A stretch of DNA of 63,870 bases, the filler included, from Stramenopiles sp. TOSAG23-2 (lineage: Eukaryota), in assembly GCA_900128395.1 (NCBI GenBank). It is 10 parts of 10 records of this genome, joined end to end, with 100 filler letters (N's around TTAATTAATTAA, not from the genome) between each part and the next. Parts side by side here need not be neighbours in the genome. Positions count along the whole stretch, not along the records: positions 38,414 to 44,711 come from LT650487.1; 9 more parts are not named here. One strand, written 5' to 3'. This document shows positions 27,283 through 56,900 of the stretch, in pieces. The position numbers and the translations under genes were made by a program. The stretch's first letter is position 1. Each line of letters starts with the position of its first letter. The notes beneath the pieces are model-generated. The model ran no database searches and was not told the DNA's origin. It was given only the letters and a program-made list of their open reading frames with translations.

Positions 27283-28404
27283 TTAATAATCAAATGCAGT
27301 TGTAATTTCATTATTCATACCATTATTAACTTTAAAATTATTGAACAGTACAGATAATGATAGCAAATTTTGTCTTAATTTGTTATTATGCAAAGGCAAT
27401 TTCAAATGTAAACGCGGTAATTGAAATATATGCATTGCCCATTCGCTAATTTGACGCACTTGTCTCAAATTTTGGCCATGTTGCAAGTCTAGCACATTTC
27501 TCTCACTGAGTTTTATTAAACCGGGTACGTTGGCAAAAGCAGAATCACCAACAACATTTGTCCCAGCCTTTACCTTTTCATAAAGACCACCTATGCGTGC
27601 TGCTTGGCTATCATGCGTCGTTCCAAGAGCATTTAATATTGCAAATCGAAATACTCCCCTTGTATCTACAAGAAGGACATTTACCACAACATGGCTGTGC
27701 AACCAGCCATTGTAGTATGCTGCTTGCAGATTTGCATCTTTTGATGTTTCAATTGCAACTTTGCATCCATCAATAGCACCCCAAACATTATACCTTTCCA
27801 ACATTGGATATTTTCTATTTGTTCTTTCAATAAGATCTGCCATTTCTTCGTCAGTAGGCCATGAAACGCGTGCATCTGGATGATCTTTTAGTGCTTCAAC
27901 TAAAGTATTAATATCTCTGTTAATTGCTTGTGATATCCGATGCCTTGATATCCCAAAAAGTAGTCCCAAATATTTCATTTCACATGTGCTGTTAATATAA
28001 ATTAGTATCAGTCCAATTCTATCTTCTAAACAAAATTTGTTATTGCTGTAACTATTCTTTGCATTTGCATCATATACAATATTTGGTAATGATGCATTGC
28101 GTTGGGAAGGTTCATGTAAGTCAATATAATTTTTAAAAATAGATACTAACCTGTCAAAGACAACAAGATTTACTCCAAGGTACAACTTAAACTCGTTCGA
28201 GCTTTTGTTGTCCAGGAGTTTCCTCCATGGAGACCTCTTTAGCCCCAATCGATATGATTGTTTTTCTTCTTTTCTTGTATCATTTGAATTTATGATATTA
28301 GAAAATAGAAGGCTAGCAATTAGAGGTTCTTCCTCTAGTAGAGTATCAAAGTCTTCTCTCAGTTCGTTGTTTATTAATATTATTTTTGTTAAACTATTTC
28401 CCAT
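27283..28404 (-). mobile_element. PIF/Harbinger-IS5-like DDE transposase (DDE_Tnp_4-type); start re-set to MGNSL
   Basis: HTH-like LGLLFGISRHRIS, W.AIDG, YNGW.HSH...NVL, G..HDS, GDSAF and RQ.SEW motifs; DDE triad intact. Confidence 0.85.
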
Positions 28405-28566
28405 AACTTTGACTTTAATAATAATAATAATAATAGACAAGGAATGTATATATATATGTATATATATATAGTTGAAGTTATAGATTATTTCAACTTCAAT
28501 ATAGTATGATAAAAAAAAAACAATCGAGAAAATTTCAACTTGTTCAATAACTTTTATCTCTTTCTT

Positions 28567-28609
<43 letters not shown>

Positions 28610-29007
28610 ACATAAATATATATAATATATTTAGTCAATAATTTTAAAAAGGCTGTAAATTGATAAAAGGCTGTATAAATGATAAAAAGCTGGTACGATG
28701 GATCTAGTACAACGGTTCTATTTTAACATGGTTGTAGTATATATATATTTTCACAGCCACTCATCAATTTATCTTGGTGTACTTTTTTTTTTTTAAAGTT
28801 TCTTTTTTTTTATTCTTTTTTCAAAACAAACTTGATAGGCATGCAGGTGTGTTAGACTACACAATAATAATTTCAAAAACAAACATGATTTTTCACAACA
28901 AAAAAACACAAACGCATAGAAAAAAACATATATGTGTATGTATATGTACATAGACATACAGATAGATACATTAAAAAAAAACAAAAGACGCATCAAAAAG
29001 AACAAAT

Positions 29008-36579: not shown

Positions 36580-37575
36580 TTATACTACTGTGACAAAATC
36601 AACATCGATTAAATCATAGTTCACTTTGTAATATCCACTCGATTTATCCAATATTACTGCATTCTCCATACCGATTTCAAGTAAATCTTGTGCCATTACA
36701 CCTTTGTACAATGTTGTTGTATTCAAAAGACCATTTACATTCATATTACTATTATTTGAAATGGTATCATTGTATTGGAATGTGTAAACCGGTATACCCG
36801 AAGAAGATTCACCAATGCGTGTAATATTCAATTTTAATCGTTTGTCGGAAAGAAATAAGGCCTCAAAAAAATTGAAATTACCGTCAAATAAACTTGTATC
36901 ATGAAAATACATACCTTTAACATCAACATTATCACTTTCCATTACCCAATCAGTATCTTTGCTTGTTGGGTTACCAGTTTTATTGGTTGACGCAGCAAAA
37001 TTACATTTTGTAAGTGCCTCAACTTCTTTAAATATTGCTTTCCCTTCCTCGGATGCCAATAAGTTACAGGCAAATAAGTCAACTCTTCCACCTTCTATTG
37101 TAGCTTTCCCCAAAGCTTCCAAGACACGGCGCACGCAGTTGTTTGGGTCTTTCAGCTCATCTACACTTTTGATGGATATGTCCTTTGTTATCGCCCATTC
37201 AAAAGAAGTGTCGTCCGATGGTTTTGGACCATGATTTGCAAGTGCAATGCTTTCAAACCCTTTTCCGGATATAGATATTGAGGCCACCGAGTTTTCAATT
37301 AACTTGACCAACTCATCAGCATTCCCCGGGCTGTTGAAACTATACCCATATTTAGATACTTTTACCATATTCATGAAATCCACAATATCAGGTGTACGGT
37401 CGCTAAACAGTACCAAGCGATTCGATAAAGTGTTCACGGCAACTTGCCCATCTTTTCCCATTGTTATCCCTACCGTAGTAGCCCCATTGATCTTTATACG
37501 TGCCGTATTTTTGGCAACCAAAGGGACATTAATATCAATGGTATTGCCGTTTTCAACGCTTGCGCCCGCACCCAT
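36580..37575 (-). CDS. DUF4347 domain + peptidase S74 (intramolecular chaperone) fusion, predicted N-myristoylated
   Basis: MGAGAS start; ANHG, GRVDLFAC.L..SEEG and AAS...TG...DWVME (DUF4347); SDKRLK.NI..IG...GIPVY.FQY, GVMAQDL and YKVNY (S74). Confidence 0.8.
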   Translation of the reverse strand: MGAGASVENGNTIDINVPLVAKNTARIKINGATTVGITMGKDGQVAVNTLSNRLVLFSDRTPDIVDFMNMVKVSKYGYSFNSPGNADELVKLIENSVASISISGKGFESIALANHGPKPSDDTSFEWAITKDISIKSVDELKDPNNCVRRVLEALGKATIEGGRVDLFACNLLASEEGKAIFKEVEALTKCNFAASTNKTGNPTSKDTDWVMESDNVDVKGMYFHDTSLFDGNFNFFEALFLSDKRLKLNITRIGESSSGIPVYTFQYNDTISNNSNMNVNGLLNTTTLYKGVMAQDLLEIGMENAVILDKSSGYYKVNYDLIDVDFVTVV

Positions 37576-38646
37576 GTTTTGACTCTTTGCTTTCTTTTTT
37601 TTTGTAACGTGTATATATTTAAAATGCAATAACTCTCGCAATTACGCAGCAGATAAATTTATTTAAGTGATGGGAGTCTCTATTCGAAACCCTTATTTTG
37701 TTTTGCTGTGTTGGAAACAATCGGAAGAAATTTACAAATTACATGATATAATAATAATAGGTTATTAATTATTAAGAAGGTACTGTACAGTATACACGAC
37801 GTGAACTAATAATAGTTTTTTTTTTTTTTTTTTCAGTAGCTAGTAGTTCTACATAGTAGTATGTCATTAGGATAATTTAAAAATTTTACTCTCTTCCCTA
37901 TCTGCACTATATTCTAAATTCCCTACTCCGGATCTCGCCCCCATTTATTTCAATTATATTATAGCCAGCCTAAAAAATCCTTTCCTCACACTTGAACTAA
38001 TAAACACGAAAAAAATCATAGTATACTATTATTTATACTTATAATTTATTTACCCCTATCTAATCCAGATTTGCCTATCAAAAAATACATCACAGGAATA
38101 ATGATTAAACCACACAGCACGCAACATCAACTTGTCAACCAGCAAAAAGGGGCAATTTTTTACATAATTTTATACTTAAAGGGAAATTAGTATACGTTTT
38201 TTACGTGTTTTGTCAAATTGCATGCCAATTTAGAATCATCTATCTGGTTTGATTTCGTTTTGCTAATGCTATTTCTATGTTATGGCTTTCGAACCCCTCC
38301 TCTCCCAATACGCNNNNNNNNNNNNNNNNNNNNNNNNNNNNNNNNNNNNNNNNNNNNTTAATTAATTAANNNNNNNNNNNNNNNNNNNNNNNNNNNNNNN
38401 NNNNNNNNNNNNNAATTGATGAGAGATAGAAATGTGTTATCAATTAGTTTTTCTATTTTTTTATTTTTTAAATTATTTATTTTTATTAACTTATACCTTT
38501 TTTCAACAACAAAACAACAACAACAACAACAAAAGTTCAAAAATGATCTCGTACATACAGTATAATAGCCCAGCTAGTACAGGACTGTATAGTCTAATAG
38601 CTTTAAATATTTCCTCCGAGTCGCTAAACCGTCCACTATTGTGCTC

Positions 38647-42070: not shown

Positions 42071-42144
42071 TTTCTTTTCCTAAATACTATAGACACAGGC
42101 TGGAGAATTTCTTTTCCTAAATACTATAGACACAGGCTGGAGAA
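42071..42144. repeat. 37-bp tandem duplication upstream of RPS17
   Basis: tttcttttcctaaatactatagacacaggctggagaa twice. Confidence 0.9.
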
Positions 42145-42377
42145 TATGTTATGGCCAGTCAATCTTCGAACCAACTTGACCAAATCGATAATATCGGATT
42201 CTTGCATTTACCTCATAAAATAACACTACACAGTATTGATAAAAATATACAAATATATATATTGTTTAAAATAGAAAATACATATATGTATGTAAGAACA
42301 ACAAGTGTAGGAAGAGAAGTTATTTATAATCATCTTGAAACAAAGAAAAAAGAAAACAACAACAACATAAAACAAAA

Positions 42378-43193
42378 ATGGTAAGTTTATTATTATTCTT
42401 TATCCAATATAGTGGATTTGAAGACTGAGGCTGGAGTTCCTTTAGGAACGTACCCCTCCATGTACACGGAAGAGGCTGTGAGCGTGAATGATGTAAATGT
42501 ATATTGTATGTATATATATATATATATTTGTATTGTAGATTGGAAAAGTTAGTAAAAGGATTTTGATGTTACATCATGAATACTTTCTAACTTCAATTGA
42601 TACATACAATATATGTATATATACACACAATGTATATTTACAGAATACGCGTGGTCCCCTTTCGAGGCTGGAGCAACCAAAAGCCAATATGTTTGAAATA
42701 AAGCTTGTTGCGATCCCCTCCCGTAAAAAGTCTTTATAAACCTCTTAATACTAACATTATTTTACCTTTACTTAACAAACTACAGGGTCGCGTACGTACT
42801 AAAACTGTTAAAAGAACTGCTCGTCAAATCGTCGAGAAATACTATGCAAATCTTACTATGGATTTTGATATCAACAAACGTGTTTGTGATGAAGTAGCAA
42901 CCATTCCATCCAAAAGAATGCGCAATAAAATTGCAGGTTATGTAACTAAATTAATGAAACGTATTAGTCGTGGACCAGTTCGTGGTATTTCTCTTAAATT
43001 ACAAGAGGAAGAACGTGAACGTCGTCTTGACTTTGTACCAGAAGTTTCTGCAATTGACTTACCAGTAATTGAAGTAGATGAAGATACTAAAGCTATGCTT
43101 ACAGCTTTGAACTTAGGTAGATTGCCACGTGTACAAGTTGCTAGTGCAGGATCAAATAACTGGAACAGATCTAGCCGTGGACGTCATTATTAA
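42378..43193 (+). CDS. RPS17: 40S ribosomal protein eS17; exon 1 is ATG only (42378-42380), intron 42381-42785, exon 2 42786-43193
   Basis: ATG|GTAAGT donor, TACTAAC branch point at 42749 and TACAG acceptor give [10 protein letters not shown]...[15 protein letters not shown]. Confidence 0.97.
42427..42721 (+). ncRNA. Intronic array of three conserved hairpin motifs (putative regulatory RNA or small-RNA precursor)
   Basis: Three GAGGCTG(T)GAG...CCCCT units, each with a different but base-paired inner stem. Confidence 0.55.
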
Positions 43194-52417: not shown

Positions 52418-55336
52418 CTAATGTATGTGATAAAGTTTTTTTGCAGTAGCAAAATCTTGTGTTTCTCCATCGTGAAATAATGACGGTTGATATTTATCAT
52501 CCATAGTACGAATTTTTGAGTTAAATTGCCGTTTAATCATATTTCTCTTTCCCTGTTGATTTGCATAACAAACATCAACAACTTTTGCACTTCTAGATTG
52601 TTGAATAAGTGTTGCCCATGGTCGTCCATGATACATAGTATAAAAATCTTTCACTATGTCAACGCTCAAAAAGTTTATAAAACAGTATCCAACATTATAA
52701 TCTGTTTTAAAATCTACTGGTAAGTAAAAATAATCATATTTTCTTTTAAAATGAAGATCTAAAAATTCTAACATGTGTTTTTTTGTCAGGCGATTTGGTA
52801 TATTCTTCATGCACAAAGTGCAACGCGTATCTACACCGTTGTTAATGCTATTCAAAATCACTTTGTTGTTGTTTTTACCACCATTTTTCCCATTCTTTCT
52901 ATCATCATATTTGCCTTTTTTATCTTGAGATCTTTTATTTATATTGAAATTATGCCTTCCATGATGACGCGGTTTTCCGCTGGAAAGATTGTTTTTCCTA
53001 TTATTATTATTATAATTATTATAATTATTGTTCGTACCATTAGTAGTGTTATTTTGATAACGGTGATGATCTTTCATTCCATTTTCCAATTGGTGGTTGT
53101 AGTGAAGAGAATTAGCATAAACTTGTTGAGGATGAAAGTTTTGTTGGTGATAATTGTAGGTTGCATGCTGTTGCTGGTGATGGCTGTGGTGAGTATGTTG
53201 TTGTTGCTGCTGCTCGTGAAGGTGTCGACTTTTCCCTAAATTGCTTTCCTGTAAATTCAAGTTATATTTCAAAGCTGTTCCAGATAACGAGACGTTATTG
53301 AATGCAGCAGGATCAAAACAAGCTATTGATAGATTATCATTGTAACCCATCATTTGAAGGTTTGTACCATTTCCGATCATATGTACAGATGCAGCCGCTA
53401 CCGGTGTCATCTCATATGTATGCTGCTGGTTTAAGTTAGCACCAGTTATATCACAATGAGGATATTTTTGCCCAAAATAATTATTTTCAGATGGAAAGAA
53501 CTTTTTTGCAACGGTTGGGTTTTGATTTTTTATTGCAAAATTGGCTTCATTGGTATCGTCATTTGTATCAACTCCATAGGCATGATTCTTATTGCTATGT
53601 TTATCACTTGAGATGCTACTTCTACCATTTGTATTAGAGTTCTTGCCATCGTTATTTTGGTTACTTTTTTTTTTAAATTCTTTCTCACTACTGTCATCCG
53701 CGGAAATTTTTGCTCTTTGTAATTTATTAAGAGCAATTTGCTTTGTATCTGACCCAACAGCTTCCCTCGTATGATTATTAGTAATAGTGCTCCCTGTCGA
53801 TGGTAATGGTGCAATACCAGTTACTGATGTAGAGATATTCGAATCTTTACTTAATGTCGTGAAGTTACTATTAGGCGCGCGCGCTCCATGCATCGTATTT
53901 TCATAATTATCCGAATTTATTTCTTGCATTGCCGTTGTGCACCATTGTAACATAAATTCATCACTATTGCATTTTAATGACAGTTCCTCGACTAAATGGG
54001 TAAACAAAAACATCGTTTTCAATGATGTGGTGGTAGGGCGTACAAAATTACGACTTACAACTTTCATGTTCCCAATTAAAAACGGTATAAATGTCAAGGC
54101 GCGGTCTGCTGCTCTAGTATCGGTAAATTGTACTAAATATTGTTTTGTATCATTGAAAGATGGATCGTCTTCAAGCTCGGATGAATTTACTTTATGAACA
54201 CTTGTTTGCCGTTTTAATTCTTTAGGGAAACATGACATTGGGCCATAAATCGAAAATGCTTTGTGAAGCATTTGCTCTACACCATTAAATGTGCTGTTTG
54301 ATGCTTTCAATTTGACTGATATTGCCCCGTCATTCCACTCTTTATAAACTGCGTGCGTTGGAATGCATGAAAATGCAAACATTTCGCCGACAAACGAAGT
54401 GCAATCCAACACTCCACCATCCTGCCATCCTAAGCCTTTTCGTTTGATAGTACTCAACCCAGTTGACTTTGCCTTTCTAATGAAGTTGTGTCCATGTACT
54501 TGTTCTTGCATTTCCTTTGCGTGGGAAATGTCAAAATATGTTATTAAAACCATAGGACATTTTGGCAAGTAGCTTTTAAAACTTCGTATTGGAAAATTAT
54601 TGCATTTACTGAAAAATTGTAATAATTCATTTTTCGTGAAATTACGATTAAGATTACAAATTAAAATGCTGCGACTAGTTCCCTGTTTAAGTAAAAATTG
54701 ATATTTGGTAGGATGTACCGCTTGGTATGTCAATTTTTCCAAGTCGCTTTCAGCAATTTTTTCATAACTTTTTGAAAATGACATTAGAAGAGAATCACTT
54801 TTCACTTTATTTGTTTTGGACCCCGAAAAAGGTCCATTCTCTTCCACCCTAGGTTGTAAACTTTTACTATTTGACCATGCAATATGTGTACTCTGCTGCA
54901 AATCCCAATCGTTCCAAGTGCGATGGCGATTCCCCTTTTTTAAACTAATGCAATTTGGATCGGACGTCCCAGCAGTTATGGGTACTTTTCGAAGTATTGA
55001 CCCATCGAGTTGGGCACTTTCGCTGCTAGTATCCACATTGCCATCTTGGTTCTGGCCATTCTGGCCTGATCTTACTGTCGTGTTCGGTCCTTGCTCTATT
55101 ATTGTTATTGTTGGGTCACTTTTATTTATTTCTAATAGTTTTGTCACTTTACTAATAATTTTTTTCCTGTGAAATGAATTCTTAATTCCAAAGTCGAGCC
55201 ACTCTTGATCTTTCAGCTTAACTAACAAAGCTCCATCAAGATCTTCTTTTATGACTAGACCTGTATATTGCTCACAACCAATTGTAGAAAACCATTTTGC
55301 AACGTGTTCTGTCGTCCAATCTTGAATATGACTCAT
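52418..55336 (-). CDS. Mei2-like RNA-binding protein with N-terminal SAM domain
   Basis: SAM (W...VAKW...IG..QY......DG..L......LD.GI....HRKKI); degenerate RRMs; Mei2 RRM3 (D.R.TL.MKNIPN...YDYFYLP.DF....NVGY.FINF). Confidence 0.85.
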   Translation of the reverse strand: MSHIQDWTTEHVAKWFSTIGCEQYTGLVIKEDLDGALLVKLKDQEWLDFGIKNSFHRKKIISKVTKLLEINKSDPTITIIEQGPNTTVRSGQNGQNQDGNVDTSSESAQLDGSILRKVPITAGTSDPNCISLKKGNRHRTWNDWDLQQSTHIAWSNSKSLQPRVEENGPFSGSKTNKVKSDSLLMSFSKSYEKIAESDLEKLTYQAVHPTKYQFLLKQGTSRSILICNLNRNFTKNELLQFFSKCNNFPIRSFKSYLPKCPMVLITYFDISHAKEMQEQVHGHNFIRKAKSTGLSTIKRKGLGWQDGGVLDCTSFVGEMFAFSCIPTHAVYKEWNDGAISVKLKASNSTFNGVEQMLHKAFSIYGPMSCFPKELKRQTSVHKVNSSELEDDPSFNDTKQYLVQFTDTRAADRALTFIPFLIGNMKVVSRNFVRPTTTSLKTMFLFTHLVEELSLKCNSDEFMLQWCTTAMQEINSDNYENTMHGARAPNSNFTTLSKDSNISTSVTGIAPLPSTGSTITNNHTREAVGSDTKQIALNKLQRAKISADDSSEKEFKKKSNQNNDGKNSNTNGRSSISSDKHSNKNHAYGVDTNDDTNEANFAIKNQNPTVAKKFFPSENNYFGQKYPHCDITGANLNQQHTYEMTPVAAASVHMIGNGTNLQMMGYNDNLSIACFDPAAFNNVSLSGTALKYNLNLQESNLGKSRHLHEQQQQQHTHHSHHQQQHATYNYHQQNFHPQQVYANSLHYNHQLENGMKDHHRYQNNTTNGTNNNYNNYNNNNRKNNLSSGKPRHHGRHNFNINKRSQDKKGKYDDRKNGKNGGKNNNKVILNSINNGVDTRCTLCMKNIPNRLTKKHMLEFLDLHFKRKYDYFYLPVDFKTDYNVGYCFINFLSVDIVKDFYTMYHGRPWATLIQQSRSAKVVDVCYANQQGKRNMIKRQFNSKIRTMDDKYQPSLFHDGETQDFATAKKLYHIH

Positions 55337-56192
55337 ATTGGTTTCACTCTAATTCTGTCTCTTTCTCCTTCTATGCAATTATTGTTATTATTATTTGAAA
55401 AAAAAGTAGGAAAAGAGATTCAGTATGCCCCTCTTCACATAATTTATTACAAATGTTTTGACTAATAAATTAATACTTTGACCAATAGACATATATATAT
55501 TGTACACTACCAGGTATTTATATTACATGTAAATATTTATTGGATCCAAGCCGGCAAGCCCAGGCAAGCTGGCAAGCCTTACTGGTTAGCCCTGGTTAGC
55601 AAGGAGGAAGGAGCCCGGATTAGAGGATGATTATTAGATCGCATTCTGGCATTCTAATTCTCGCTTTGCACCTCTGTGCCGGGCTGGCACGCTGGCACCC
55701 CCCTCAAAACCGTGTCAACACTGCGCACTAACAAATTAACACTATTCACTATGGGAAATATATATATATATCATTTTCAAAATGCCAATTTTATTTTTCA
55801 TATATTTGTAAAAATAGCAAATATCCGAAAATATAGAAACAATGATGAATATTTCCCCACGTTTTTGATTTTTTCTCCCTTGCCTTTTACTTTAGCCGGC
55901 CAGATTTAATACCACCAGTATAGAGTGGTACATGTACTGTATGGTCACTCCAGCACTCCAGCACTCCAGCACTCTCCTCTCTCCTCTACAGTACAGTATA
56001 GGATATCCATGCAAGCCCTATATAATAAGGCAAGCCCAGCAAGCGCAGCAGAGTCTATAATACAGATTGTCCGGGTCTTATATATATATATATCTACTTT
56101 ATTTTTATCTGACGACTCCATGTACACGACTTTACCTTGTATCTATATCTACGTATATACTACAAACAGAGAAAAGATCTAAATATCTAATA

Positions 56193-56900
56193 ATGAAAAG
56201 GAAAATCAAGGATGTAGATACTATGATGGAAAGTCATGAAAAAATTGAAAATAATATAAGTACGAATACAAAAACAAATGTACATGACAATAATAATAAA
56301 GATAATGGGAATAGTAATAACAATGATAGTAATGGCGATGGAAAGAAATTGTCTAAAAAGAAGAAGAAACGTAAGAATACAATATTGCCACGAAATATAG
56401 AAGAATTAGAATCCTTCTCAAGGAAAGATTTGGGGAAATACTGCAAAGCATATATCAAAGCTATGCTTGAAAGATGGGAGAATGAGTTATTAGCTCGTCC
56501 ACCAGAGGTTAAAAACTCTGGACAGGGCCGTGCAGCTACTCGGCAGTTTAAAGAATGTAAAAATAGCATGAAACAATTTTTCAAAGGCTGTAAAGCTGAA
56601 TCCATACATATAGATGTTGTTGGGGGTGTCAGTAAAATAGTTCTTTTTTTGCAAACAAGAGAATATGTAAAAGCACATGATCAGTATATGTTAATGGCAA
56701 TTGGCAATGCACCATGGCCAATTGGAGTAACTGCTGTTGGTATTCACGATCGTACTGGTAGGGAAAGAATTGGATCAAATAAAATTGCACATATTATGGA
56801 TGATGAAGGGACAAGAAAATCTCTTAATGCTATAAAAAGAATTTTGACTTATTGCCAAAAAGTTTTTCCAACTGATCCGAGCAAAATGGTATTCAACTAA
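56193..56900 (+). CDS. PRPF18: Pre-mRNA splicing factor Prp18
   Basis: Y..MAIGNAPWPIGVT.VGIH.R.GRE.I....AH.M.DE..RK signature. Confidence 0.93.
   Translation: MKRKIKDVDTMMESHEKIENNISTNTKTNVHDNNNKDNGNSNNNDSNGDGKKLSKKKKKRKNTILPRNIEELESFSRKDLGKYCKAYIKAMLERWENELLARPPEVKNSGQGRAATRQFKECKNSMKQFFKGCKAESIHIDVVGGVSKIVLFLQTREYVKAHDQYMLMAIGNAPWPIGVTAVGIHDRTGRERIGSNKIAHIMDDEGTRKSLNAIKRILTYCQKVFPTDPSKMVFN

Follow-up and report, generated by a model that had tools for sequence, protein, structure and literature searches.

Conserved structures in the introns of yeast RPL18B and RPS22B are reported to enable the cognate protein to inhibit splicing, and the introns of yeast RPL7B, RPL22 and RPS9 and of human RPS13 provide precedents of the same kind. 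Intronic autoregulatory structures are also found in RPL30 and RPS14B, and known autoregulatory sites are usually single rRNA mimics rather than arrays. To our knowledge, the documented cases of feedback through intron structures in ribosomal-protein genes come almost entirely from yeasts, plus a few animals. Among the 15 literature matches listed, of 772, none dealt with autoregulation by eS17. Arrays of protein-binding hairpins are represented by the IREs of the transferrin-receptor 3′ UTR and the two U1A sites of the U1A pre-mRNA. Finally, the yeast RPS17B (RP51B) intron contains a zipper stem, formed by distant segments, that is reported to promote splicing (PMC2536676).

Here, we describe a conserved RNA motif repeated in tandem within the eS17 intron of an uncultured marine protist. 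As in the autoregulatory introns of other ribosomal-protein genes, a conserved structure occupies the gene's own 5′-proximal intron between the 5′ splice site and the branch point; unlike them, eS17 carries one small module repeated two to three times in place of one larger fold. The two also differ in organism and are unrelated by sequence or Rfam family, and both the ligand and the effect of the eS17 array are candidate assignments. With the IRE and U1A arrays, the eS17 array shares copies of one small hairpin, a bulge or loop that would be read by protein, and free stems and tips, whereas the sequences, proteins and location are different, making the likeness an analogy of design.

The stretch of DNA analysed, 63,870 nucleotides from Stramenopiles sp. 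TOSAG23-2 (hereafter the window), has the composition of gene-dense eukaryotic DNA (~32% G+C, long open frames). It includes 792 N in runs (near 18.9-19.2, 25.6, 31.9 and 38.4 kb) and was read as a gapped scaffold. A single ribosomal-protein gene of the organism is visible in the window, identified as eS17 by PF00833 with 7386 homologues. The coding part of exon 1 comprises the start codon only (42378-42380, plus strand), followed directly by GTAAGT. The 405-nt intron (42381-42785) extends from GTAAGT (42381-42386) through a TACTAAC branch site (42749-42755) to CAG (42783-42785), and exon 2 (42786-43193) contributes 135 codons and a stop codon (43191-43193), its translation beginning GRVRTK and matching PF00833 homologues. 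In the window species, an intron directly after the start codon is indicated by these splice signals; in relatives, the same reading is supported because the protein records P0148 and P0143 start with MGRVRTK, that is, M joined to exon 2. Among the 120 matches listed, no organism-named eS17 homologue exceeded 76% identity, and the closest ones were marine records. Among 24 runs listed, 20 contain the stretch; 14 studies are represented, and most of the material is marine metagenomic. Word shares in RNA runs were 0.52-0.56, values by which spliced mRNA plus neighbouring transcripts and partial intron retention are inseparable.

Three units lie on the plus strand of this intron, each built from an outer helix (P1), a conserved loop (5′ strand CUGGA, 3′ strand G-N-N-CC), an inner helix (P2) and a variable tip. 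A preliminary description of this DNA had delineated the three units and the RPS17 intron, and every one of its coordinates and letters checks on direct reading. W1 (42427-42459) begins 46 nt past the 5′ splice site and reads GAGG / CUGGA / GUUCC-uuua-GGAAC / GUA-CC / CCUC. Its P1 pairs 42427-42430 with 42455-42458, the loop strands are CUGGA (42431-42435) and GUA-CC (42450-42454), and P2 pairs 42436-42440 with 42445-42449 beneath a tetraloop (42441-42444). A minus-strand open reading frame across W1 (42323-42568) had no homologue. W2 (42471-42662; 42472-42660 in the preliminary description) opens with the 5′ box GGCUGUGA and has a P1 of 5 bp, including one G-U (42471-42475 with 42658-42662), a 5′ loop strand CUGUGA (42476-42481) and a 3′ box ending in CCCC (42656-42659). 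Its P2 joins 42482-42486 to either 42646-42650 or 42648-42652: GCGUG can face UACGC, with a GUGGU linker, or equally CGCGU, and the latter gives a 3-nt linker, GGU, as in the other units. W3 (42664-42721; GAGG / CUGGA / GCAAC ... GUUGC / GAU-CC / CCUC) pairs 42664-42667 with 42717-42720 in P1 and 42673-42677 with 42707-42711 in P2, with loop strands CUGGA (42668-42672) and GAU-CC (42712-42716) and a tip at 42678-42706; the branch point follows 33 nt past it.

To assess conservation, metagenome contigs were scanned with the lineage-specific C-terminal 55 residues of eS17, which yielded 38 loci. Two of these, L001 and L002, were 89% identical to the query and were counted as one relative because they are identical to each other across the gene; two species, the window species and L001, were thus compared. 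The L001 gene has its ATG at 716-718 and an intron at 719-988, with GTAAGT, ACTAAC and TAG, then exon 2, at the same position as in the window. The two proteins are identical at 115 of 135 residues and the exon 2 DNA at 72%, and four-fold sites agree at only 26 of 57, so that unconstrained sequence has largely diverged. Nevertheless, the L001 intron contains two full units and one decayed unit at places matching those of the window. R1 consists of GGCUGGA, ACGUC, ugu, GACGU, GAA and CCCCC, and R2 of GGCUGGA, GCGAU(U) ... (A)AUCGU, GAG and CCCC. In the intron alignment, the segment bounded by the W2 3′ box and the W3 5′ box, boxes included, corresponds to the segment spanning R1 to R2, so W2 is the counterpart of R1 and W3 of R2. 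At the place of W1, L001 has a hairpin and a near-complete 3′ box followed by TGTACA, and the 5′ box is gone; by its sequence we read this hairpin as a decayed unit. TGTACA stands right after the first intron hairpin in both species (window 42460-42466, L001 765-770). The longest exact words common to both introns are those of the 5′ box (10 and 9 nt), exceeding the splice and branch signals.

The other 36 loci showed 60-74% protein identity. Most of them match from or near the first residue, indicating that most have no intron after the ATG; a strict descriptor of the motif (defined below) was absent from all 36, which are accordingly uninformative on its conservation. The lineage-specific C-terminus had no relative among the prokaryote genomes and viral contigs scanned. 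Among the proteins collected, eS17 of this clade forms at least three more clusters at species level, namely P0004/P0137 (with JGI contigs of 8-9 kb), P0007/P0154, and P0011 and P0124. In a third species (P0004, P0141, P0144), an open reading frame runs 39 codons into the intron with the start MSLEPPF, and its E-P-P, encoded as GAR-CCN-CCN ~100 nt before the 3′ splice site, would be compatible with a 3′ box, a hint at most. Separately, gene callers appended 26-27 codons from the 3′ end of the intron to exon 2 in P0002, P0125, P0127, P0133 and P0135. The RSPP codons, which cover the W3 3′ box, were unchanged in five of five such records seen, and P0002 departs just past RSPP, with VNG in place of VKS.

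Across the five units from two species, the invariant letters are GGCUG, GA, G and CCCC. The 5′ loop strand is the same in four of the five, W2 having one inserted U, and the 3′ loop strand differs only in its linker, at two positions in four of the five. In all five, the C residues of the 3′ box take part in P1 from the third onward, with 4, 5, 4, 7 and 2 contiguous pairs in W1, W2, W3, R2 and R1, respectively; the fourth pair is G-C in W1 and W3, G-U in W2 and A-U in R2. Folded alone with RNAfold, W1 and R2 each gave exactly P1, a 5x5 loop and P2. W3 alone paired the GG of the loop to the CC, leaving a CU bulge. The shortest form of the motif is ~33 nt (W1, R1), and the tip loops of W1, W2, W3, R1 and R2 measure 4, 159, 29, 3 and 33 nt. 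Because the tips vary from 3 to ~160 nt, as expected for a protein site, we place the function at the P1-loop-P2 base.

We then tabulated the P2 pairs by a script from the coordinates, as MAFFT could not bring the five 3′ arms into one alignment. The five P2 sequences are all different, and 25 of 25 cells are paired. When the 3′ arms were permuted among units, only the true arrangement, one of 120, reached 25, and the 44 derangements attained at most 16; sliding the 3′ arm by 1-3 bases left 3-13 paired cells. Moreover, unguided RNAalifold analysis of W3 with R2 recovered four P1 pairs, the 5x5 loop and five P2 pairs, with three of these nine pairs compensatory, one changed on one side and none broken. 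P1 and P2 have been kept by compensating changes between the two species. All units lie on the coding strand; W2 has G-U pairs in both of its helices and R2 has them in P2, and these work on the sense strand only. The preliminary description had noted that the inner stems differ from unit to unit and yet pair, and the second species bears this out, keeping the frame with different paired stems.

The units are adjacent and similar, and hairpins can be made and kept by template switching; these points speak for a tandem hairpin duplication of no function, its stems kept perfect by template switching in replication. However, the loop strands are constant between units while the stems differ, the reverse of the pattern of recent duplication. 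In addition, the frame has survived despite the divergence at four-fold sites, and template switching does not make G-U pairs. We regard an array of no function as highly improbable.

To gauge the rarity of the motif, we used a strict descriptor consisting of GGCTG.{0,1}GA, a 5-bp stem, a loop of 3-200, the complementary stem and G.{2,4}CCCC. It had three matches in the window, all on the plus strand and all in the eS17 intron, and none in 100 dinucleotide shuffles. Over 191,739 bases searched on both strands (the window and the 38 loci), it found W1-W3 and R1-R2 only. Covariance models built from W1 alone or from W1 and R1 recovered W1 and R1 only, missing the three long-tip units because of the insertion cost; their remaining matches (E 0.23-10) did not have the boxes. 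GAGGCTG occurs five times in the window, three of them in the eS17 intron, and the core AGGCTGGAG occurs four times against 0.09 expected, each time at the eS17 locus. Together, the descriptor and the second species support the reading that the three units exceed chance and form a sense-strand covarying RNA motif rather than a plain DNA site, in agreement with the preliminary description. The motif is apparently new to description; a search of published text for the 5′ box returned only unrelated oligonucleotides and the human 7SL sequence.

The 5′ box also occurs outside the intron: two further AGGCTGGAG copies lie in an exact 37-bp tandem duplication (42071-42144, plus strand) ~235-305 bp upstream of the ATG. 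Each copy of the duplication ends in AGACACAGGCTGGAG, which represents the 5′ box without a stem and without a 3′ box. The promoter repeat and the lead-in of W1 aligned locally with a score above 2000 of 2000 shuffles. When the shared 9-mer was omitted, 135 of 2000 shuffles reached the score, so the likeness is significant only through AGAC..AGGCTGGAG. Five 5′ boxes in ~600 bp, in one orientation and with two upstream of the gene, would suit a DNA element, that is, transcription-factor sites with the core AGGCTGGAG around the eS17 promoter and first intron. Such an element, on the other hand, leaves the 3′ box, the paired arms, the compensating changes and the G-U pairs unexplained; furthermore, L001 has no counterpart of the promoter repeat and no copy upstream of its eS17 gene, and the two upstream copies represent one event. 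It had been proposed at the outset that a DNA site would reveal itself as a motif common in promoters, in both orientations and without paired stems. That pattern was not seen: in 63.9 kb, the 5′ box occurred six times on the plus strand and three times on the minus strand, and five of the six plus-strand copies were at the eS17 locus. Transcription-factor sites are therefore, in our view, a very unlikely account of the array.

We next compared the units with known RNA classes. Searching the whole window against Rfam 15 gave no match at the gathering threshold, and at E up to 10 only weak unrelated matches appeared in the window (<=24 bits against thresholds of 50-100), none convincingly covering a unit; no family match emerged, and the known snoRNA that would have removed the novelty was not found. 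The window also contains no 18S rRNA of the organism, the molecule with which GCUGGA might pair. The architecture of a lower stem, an internal loop of ~5+5 nt and an upper stem within a ribosomal-protein intron is reminiscent of single-hairpin H/ACA guides, a role that the preliminary description had offered as one possibility. The ACA that it placed 14 nt after the upper stem of W1 is there, starting at the 15th base. However, W1 is the only one of the five units with an ACA at the H/ACA distance (~14-16 nt); in R2 it stands at +20, and W2, W3 and R1 have none within 30 nt of the upper stem. The guide role also fits poorly because the 5′ pocket strand is invariant, unlike that of guides for different targets. 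With these two features and no Rfam match against it, the guide reading is not supported. A C box (RUGAUGA/UGAUGA) is absent from both introns, and CUGA, the D box, occurs once in the window intron and is absent from that of L001.

A kink-turn comprises a 3-nt bulge and tandem sheared G-A/A-G pairs, with the partner G-A abutting the C-stem, and is bound by L7Ae/eL30-type proteins. Past the G-C pairs, the 5′ strand of the eS17 units fits this scheme in four of five cases (CUG, then GA at the inner helix), and all five units have a G on the 3′ strand right after the inner helix. In contrast, the 3′ strand has GA in three of five units and GU in two, with 1-3 extra bases before P1. Because the tandem sheared pairs beside a 3+0 bulge are absent on the eS17 3′ strand, the units are not kink-turns by this comparison.

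In addition to the bases shared by all units, the tip of W2 contains a long TA/TG-rich hairpin (42487-42645, plus strand), whose minimum-energy fold has 82 pairs, 10 of them G-U, at -70.0 kcal/mol on the sense strand versus -54.7 kcal/mol on the antisense (z -9.5). The pairing of 42492-42506 with 42628-42642 noticed earlier is confirmed, with 13 Watson-Crick and two G-U pairs and zero mismatches. The z of -6.3 for the window intron comes from this insert. The short units showed no unusual stability (z -1.6 to +1.0), and the whole L001 intron folded no better than shuffles (-56.9 versus -55.7 +/- 4.4 kcal/mol). The insert is lineage-specific, without a counterpart in the relative, the loop of the orthologous R1 being 3 nt. 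It is best read as a tolerated expansion of a free tip, and such tolerance in turn points to the base of the unit as the site of function. Searching part of the insert (42483-42599) against the window gave only simple TA/TG repeat matches elsewhere; its candidacy as a mobile element was rejected, as this search found no second copy in the window.

A separate likeness involved the 8-mers GGATTTTG and CATGAATA followed by CTAAC, which occur in the same order at 42558-42591 in the window and at 934-962 in L001. They lie in the tip of the W2 insert in the former and adjoin the real branch site in the latter. The local alignment was equalled by 195 of 1000 shuffles, and this candidate was dropped.

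These observations bear on a further explanation, in which the units are precursors of small stable RNAs of a new class, snoRNA-like or of a Dicer type, and the boxes are signals for processing or assembly. Ribosomal-protein introns are reported to host snoRNAs often (PMC3511168); moreover, the units are tandem and discrete with stable bases, and the W2 insert is a long near-perfect hairpin. Yet this hairpin is not conserved, W1 and R1 are only ~33 nt long, and the constant part is the internal loop rather than a candidate guide. Considered with the lack of a convincing Rfam match, whether by gathering score or at E up to 10, of a C box in either intron and of a correctly spaced ACA in four of the five units, this evidence renders small-RNA precursors improbable.

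One resemblance to a known RNA emerged in the SRP. Counted on the sequence in PMC9906624, nt 48-57 of human RN7SL1 are identical to the 10-nt 5′ box of W1 and W3, and nt 288-293, which face them across helix 5, read G-A-CCCC. The first asymmetric loop of helix 5 in SRP RNA (G57:A289) is described as the contact site for helix 3 and SRP9 (PMC4238359), and intronic Alu folds in primates are reported to bind SRP9/14 and change splicing (PMC10450188). The module could accordingly be imagined as a copy of this loop, whose surface docks a G-U helix and SRP9, with two to three decoys that bind SRP9/14 or fold by the same tertiary contact, tying eS17 splicing to the state of SRP and the translation machinery. 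The extra unpaired bases, however, lie on the 5′ strand of the Alu-domain loop in SRP RNA and on the 3′ strand in the eS17 units; furthermore, no Rfam SRP model matched, and the likeness is to the human sequence, the only one compared. The likeness may be due to chance, and we consider an SRP-derived module a very long shot.

The yeast RPS17B intron invites another account, in which the hairpins passively aid splicing by compacting the 373 nt that separate the 5′ splice site from the branch point, with no specific regulator involved. Both belong to the same gene family and are long introns near the 5′ end with structure between the 5′ splice site and the branch point, and in yeast the pairing is reported to promote splicing (PMC2536676). 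Closing all three P1 helices would shorten the route to the branch point from 373 to ~95 nt, and the structural distance in the minimum-energy fold is 30 nt. Nevertheless, 83 of 100 window shuffles were at or below 30 nt, and in L001, where the distance falls from 243 to 19 nt, 47 of 100 shuffles were as short. On this measure, a role in compaction alone gains no clear support, as shuffling leaves the introns about as compact. The yeast zipper also differs in that it pairs two distant segments without a motif, whereas the eS17 hairpins are local and their loop is invariant. Pairing alone would leave the invariant GGCUG, GA, G and CCCC of five units in two species unexplained. We consider passive compaction unlikely.

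The reading that we tentatively favour, with somewhat less than even confidence, is that the tandem module array constitutes a multivalent protein-binding element acting on eS17 pre-mRNA splicing, with surplus eS17 as the likeliest ligand. The array consists of copies of one RNA module, read on the sense strand of the eS17 pre-mRNA. In each copy, the short outer helix P1 closes with G-G/C-C; next comes the conserved loop, CUGGA / G-N-N-C-C, where pairing of GG to CC can leave a bulged CU and a loop of A/GNN; and the inner helix P2, of 5-6 bp and free sequence, is capped by a tip of 3 to ~160 nt. Such an array could serve as a multivalent platform for a loop-recognising protein. Occupancy would hinder, or possibly help, spliceosome assembly, which would set eS17 output; because the array has the 5′ splice site on one side and the branch site on the other, it would act on intron removal and hence on the level of eS17 mRNA. 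We name eS17 as the first candidate ligand because several ribosomal-protein genes have documented intron structures to which their own protein binds, and surplus eS17 would then exert negative feedback as in those genes; of all parts of the model, the ligand's identity is the least secure. Several points count against this explanation, namely the loss of the W1 5′ box in the relative, the two contiguous P1 pairs of R1, the ordinary stability of the short units and of the whole L001 intron, the two stemless 5′ boxes in the promoter at the DNA level, the usual occurrence of autoregulatory sites as single rRNA mimics, and the restriction of the comparison to two species and one ribosomal-protein gene.

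The array nevertheless represents a compact candidate with sharp outlines, from a marine protist lineage that is abundant and uncultured. At ~33 nt in its shortest form, and with constant and variable positions easily told apart, the motif lends itself to straightforward binding and reporter tests, and the descriptor is usable at once on genomes of the clade. Should eS17 prove to be the ligand, one more ribosomal protein would join those known to autoregulate, and by a multivalent design; should other genes carry the module, they would form a new post-transcriptional regulon.

Several further features of the window were recorded. Three head-to-tail copies of TGCTGGAG (55948-55971, minus strand) occupy the spacer before the Prp18 gene (56061-56900). 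On the minus strand, a 479-aa open frame at 27283-28722 carries a DDE_Tnp_4 transposase domain (E 5e-13), which suggests a Harbinger/PIF-type element. A second minus-strand open frame, at 36580-37641, combines DUF4347 with a Peptidase_S74 (endosialidase chaperone) domain, a combination more usual in fibre proteins of phages and bacteria. Finally, a 976-aa open frame at 52418-55348, also on the minus strand, has an N-terminal SAM domain and a C-terminal RRM_2 domain of the Mei2 type.
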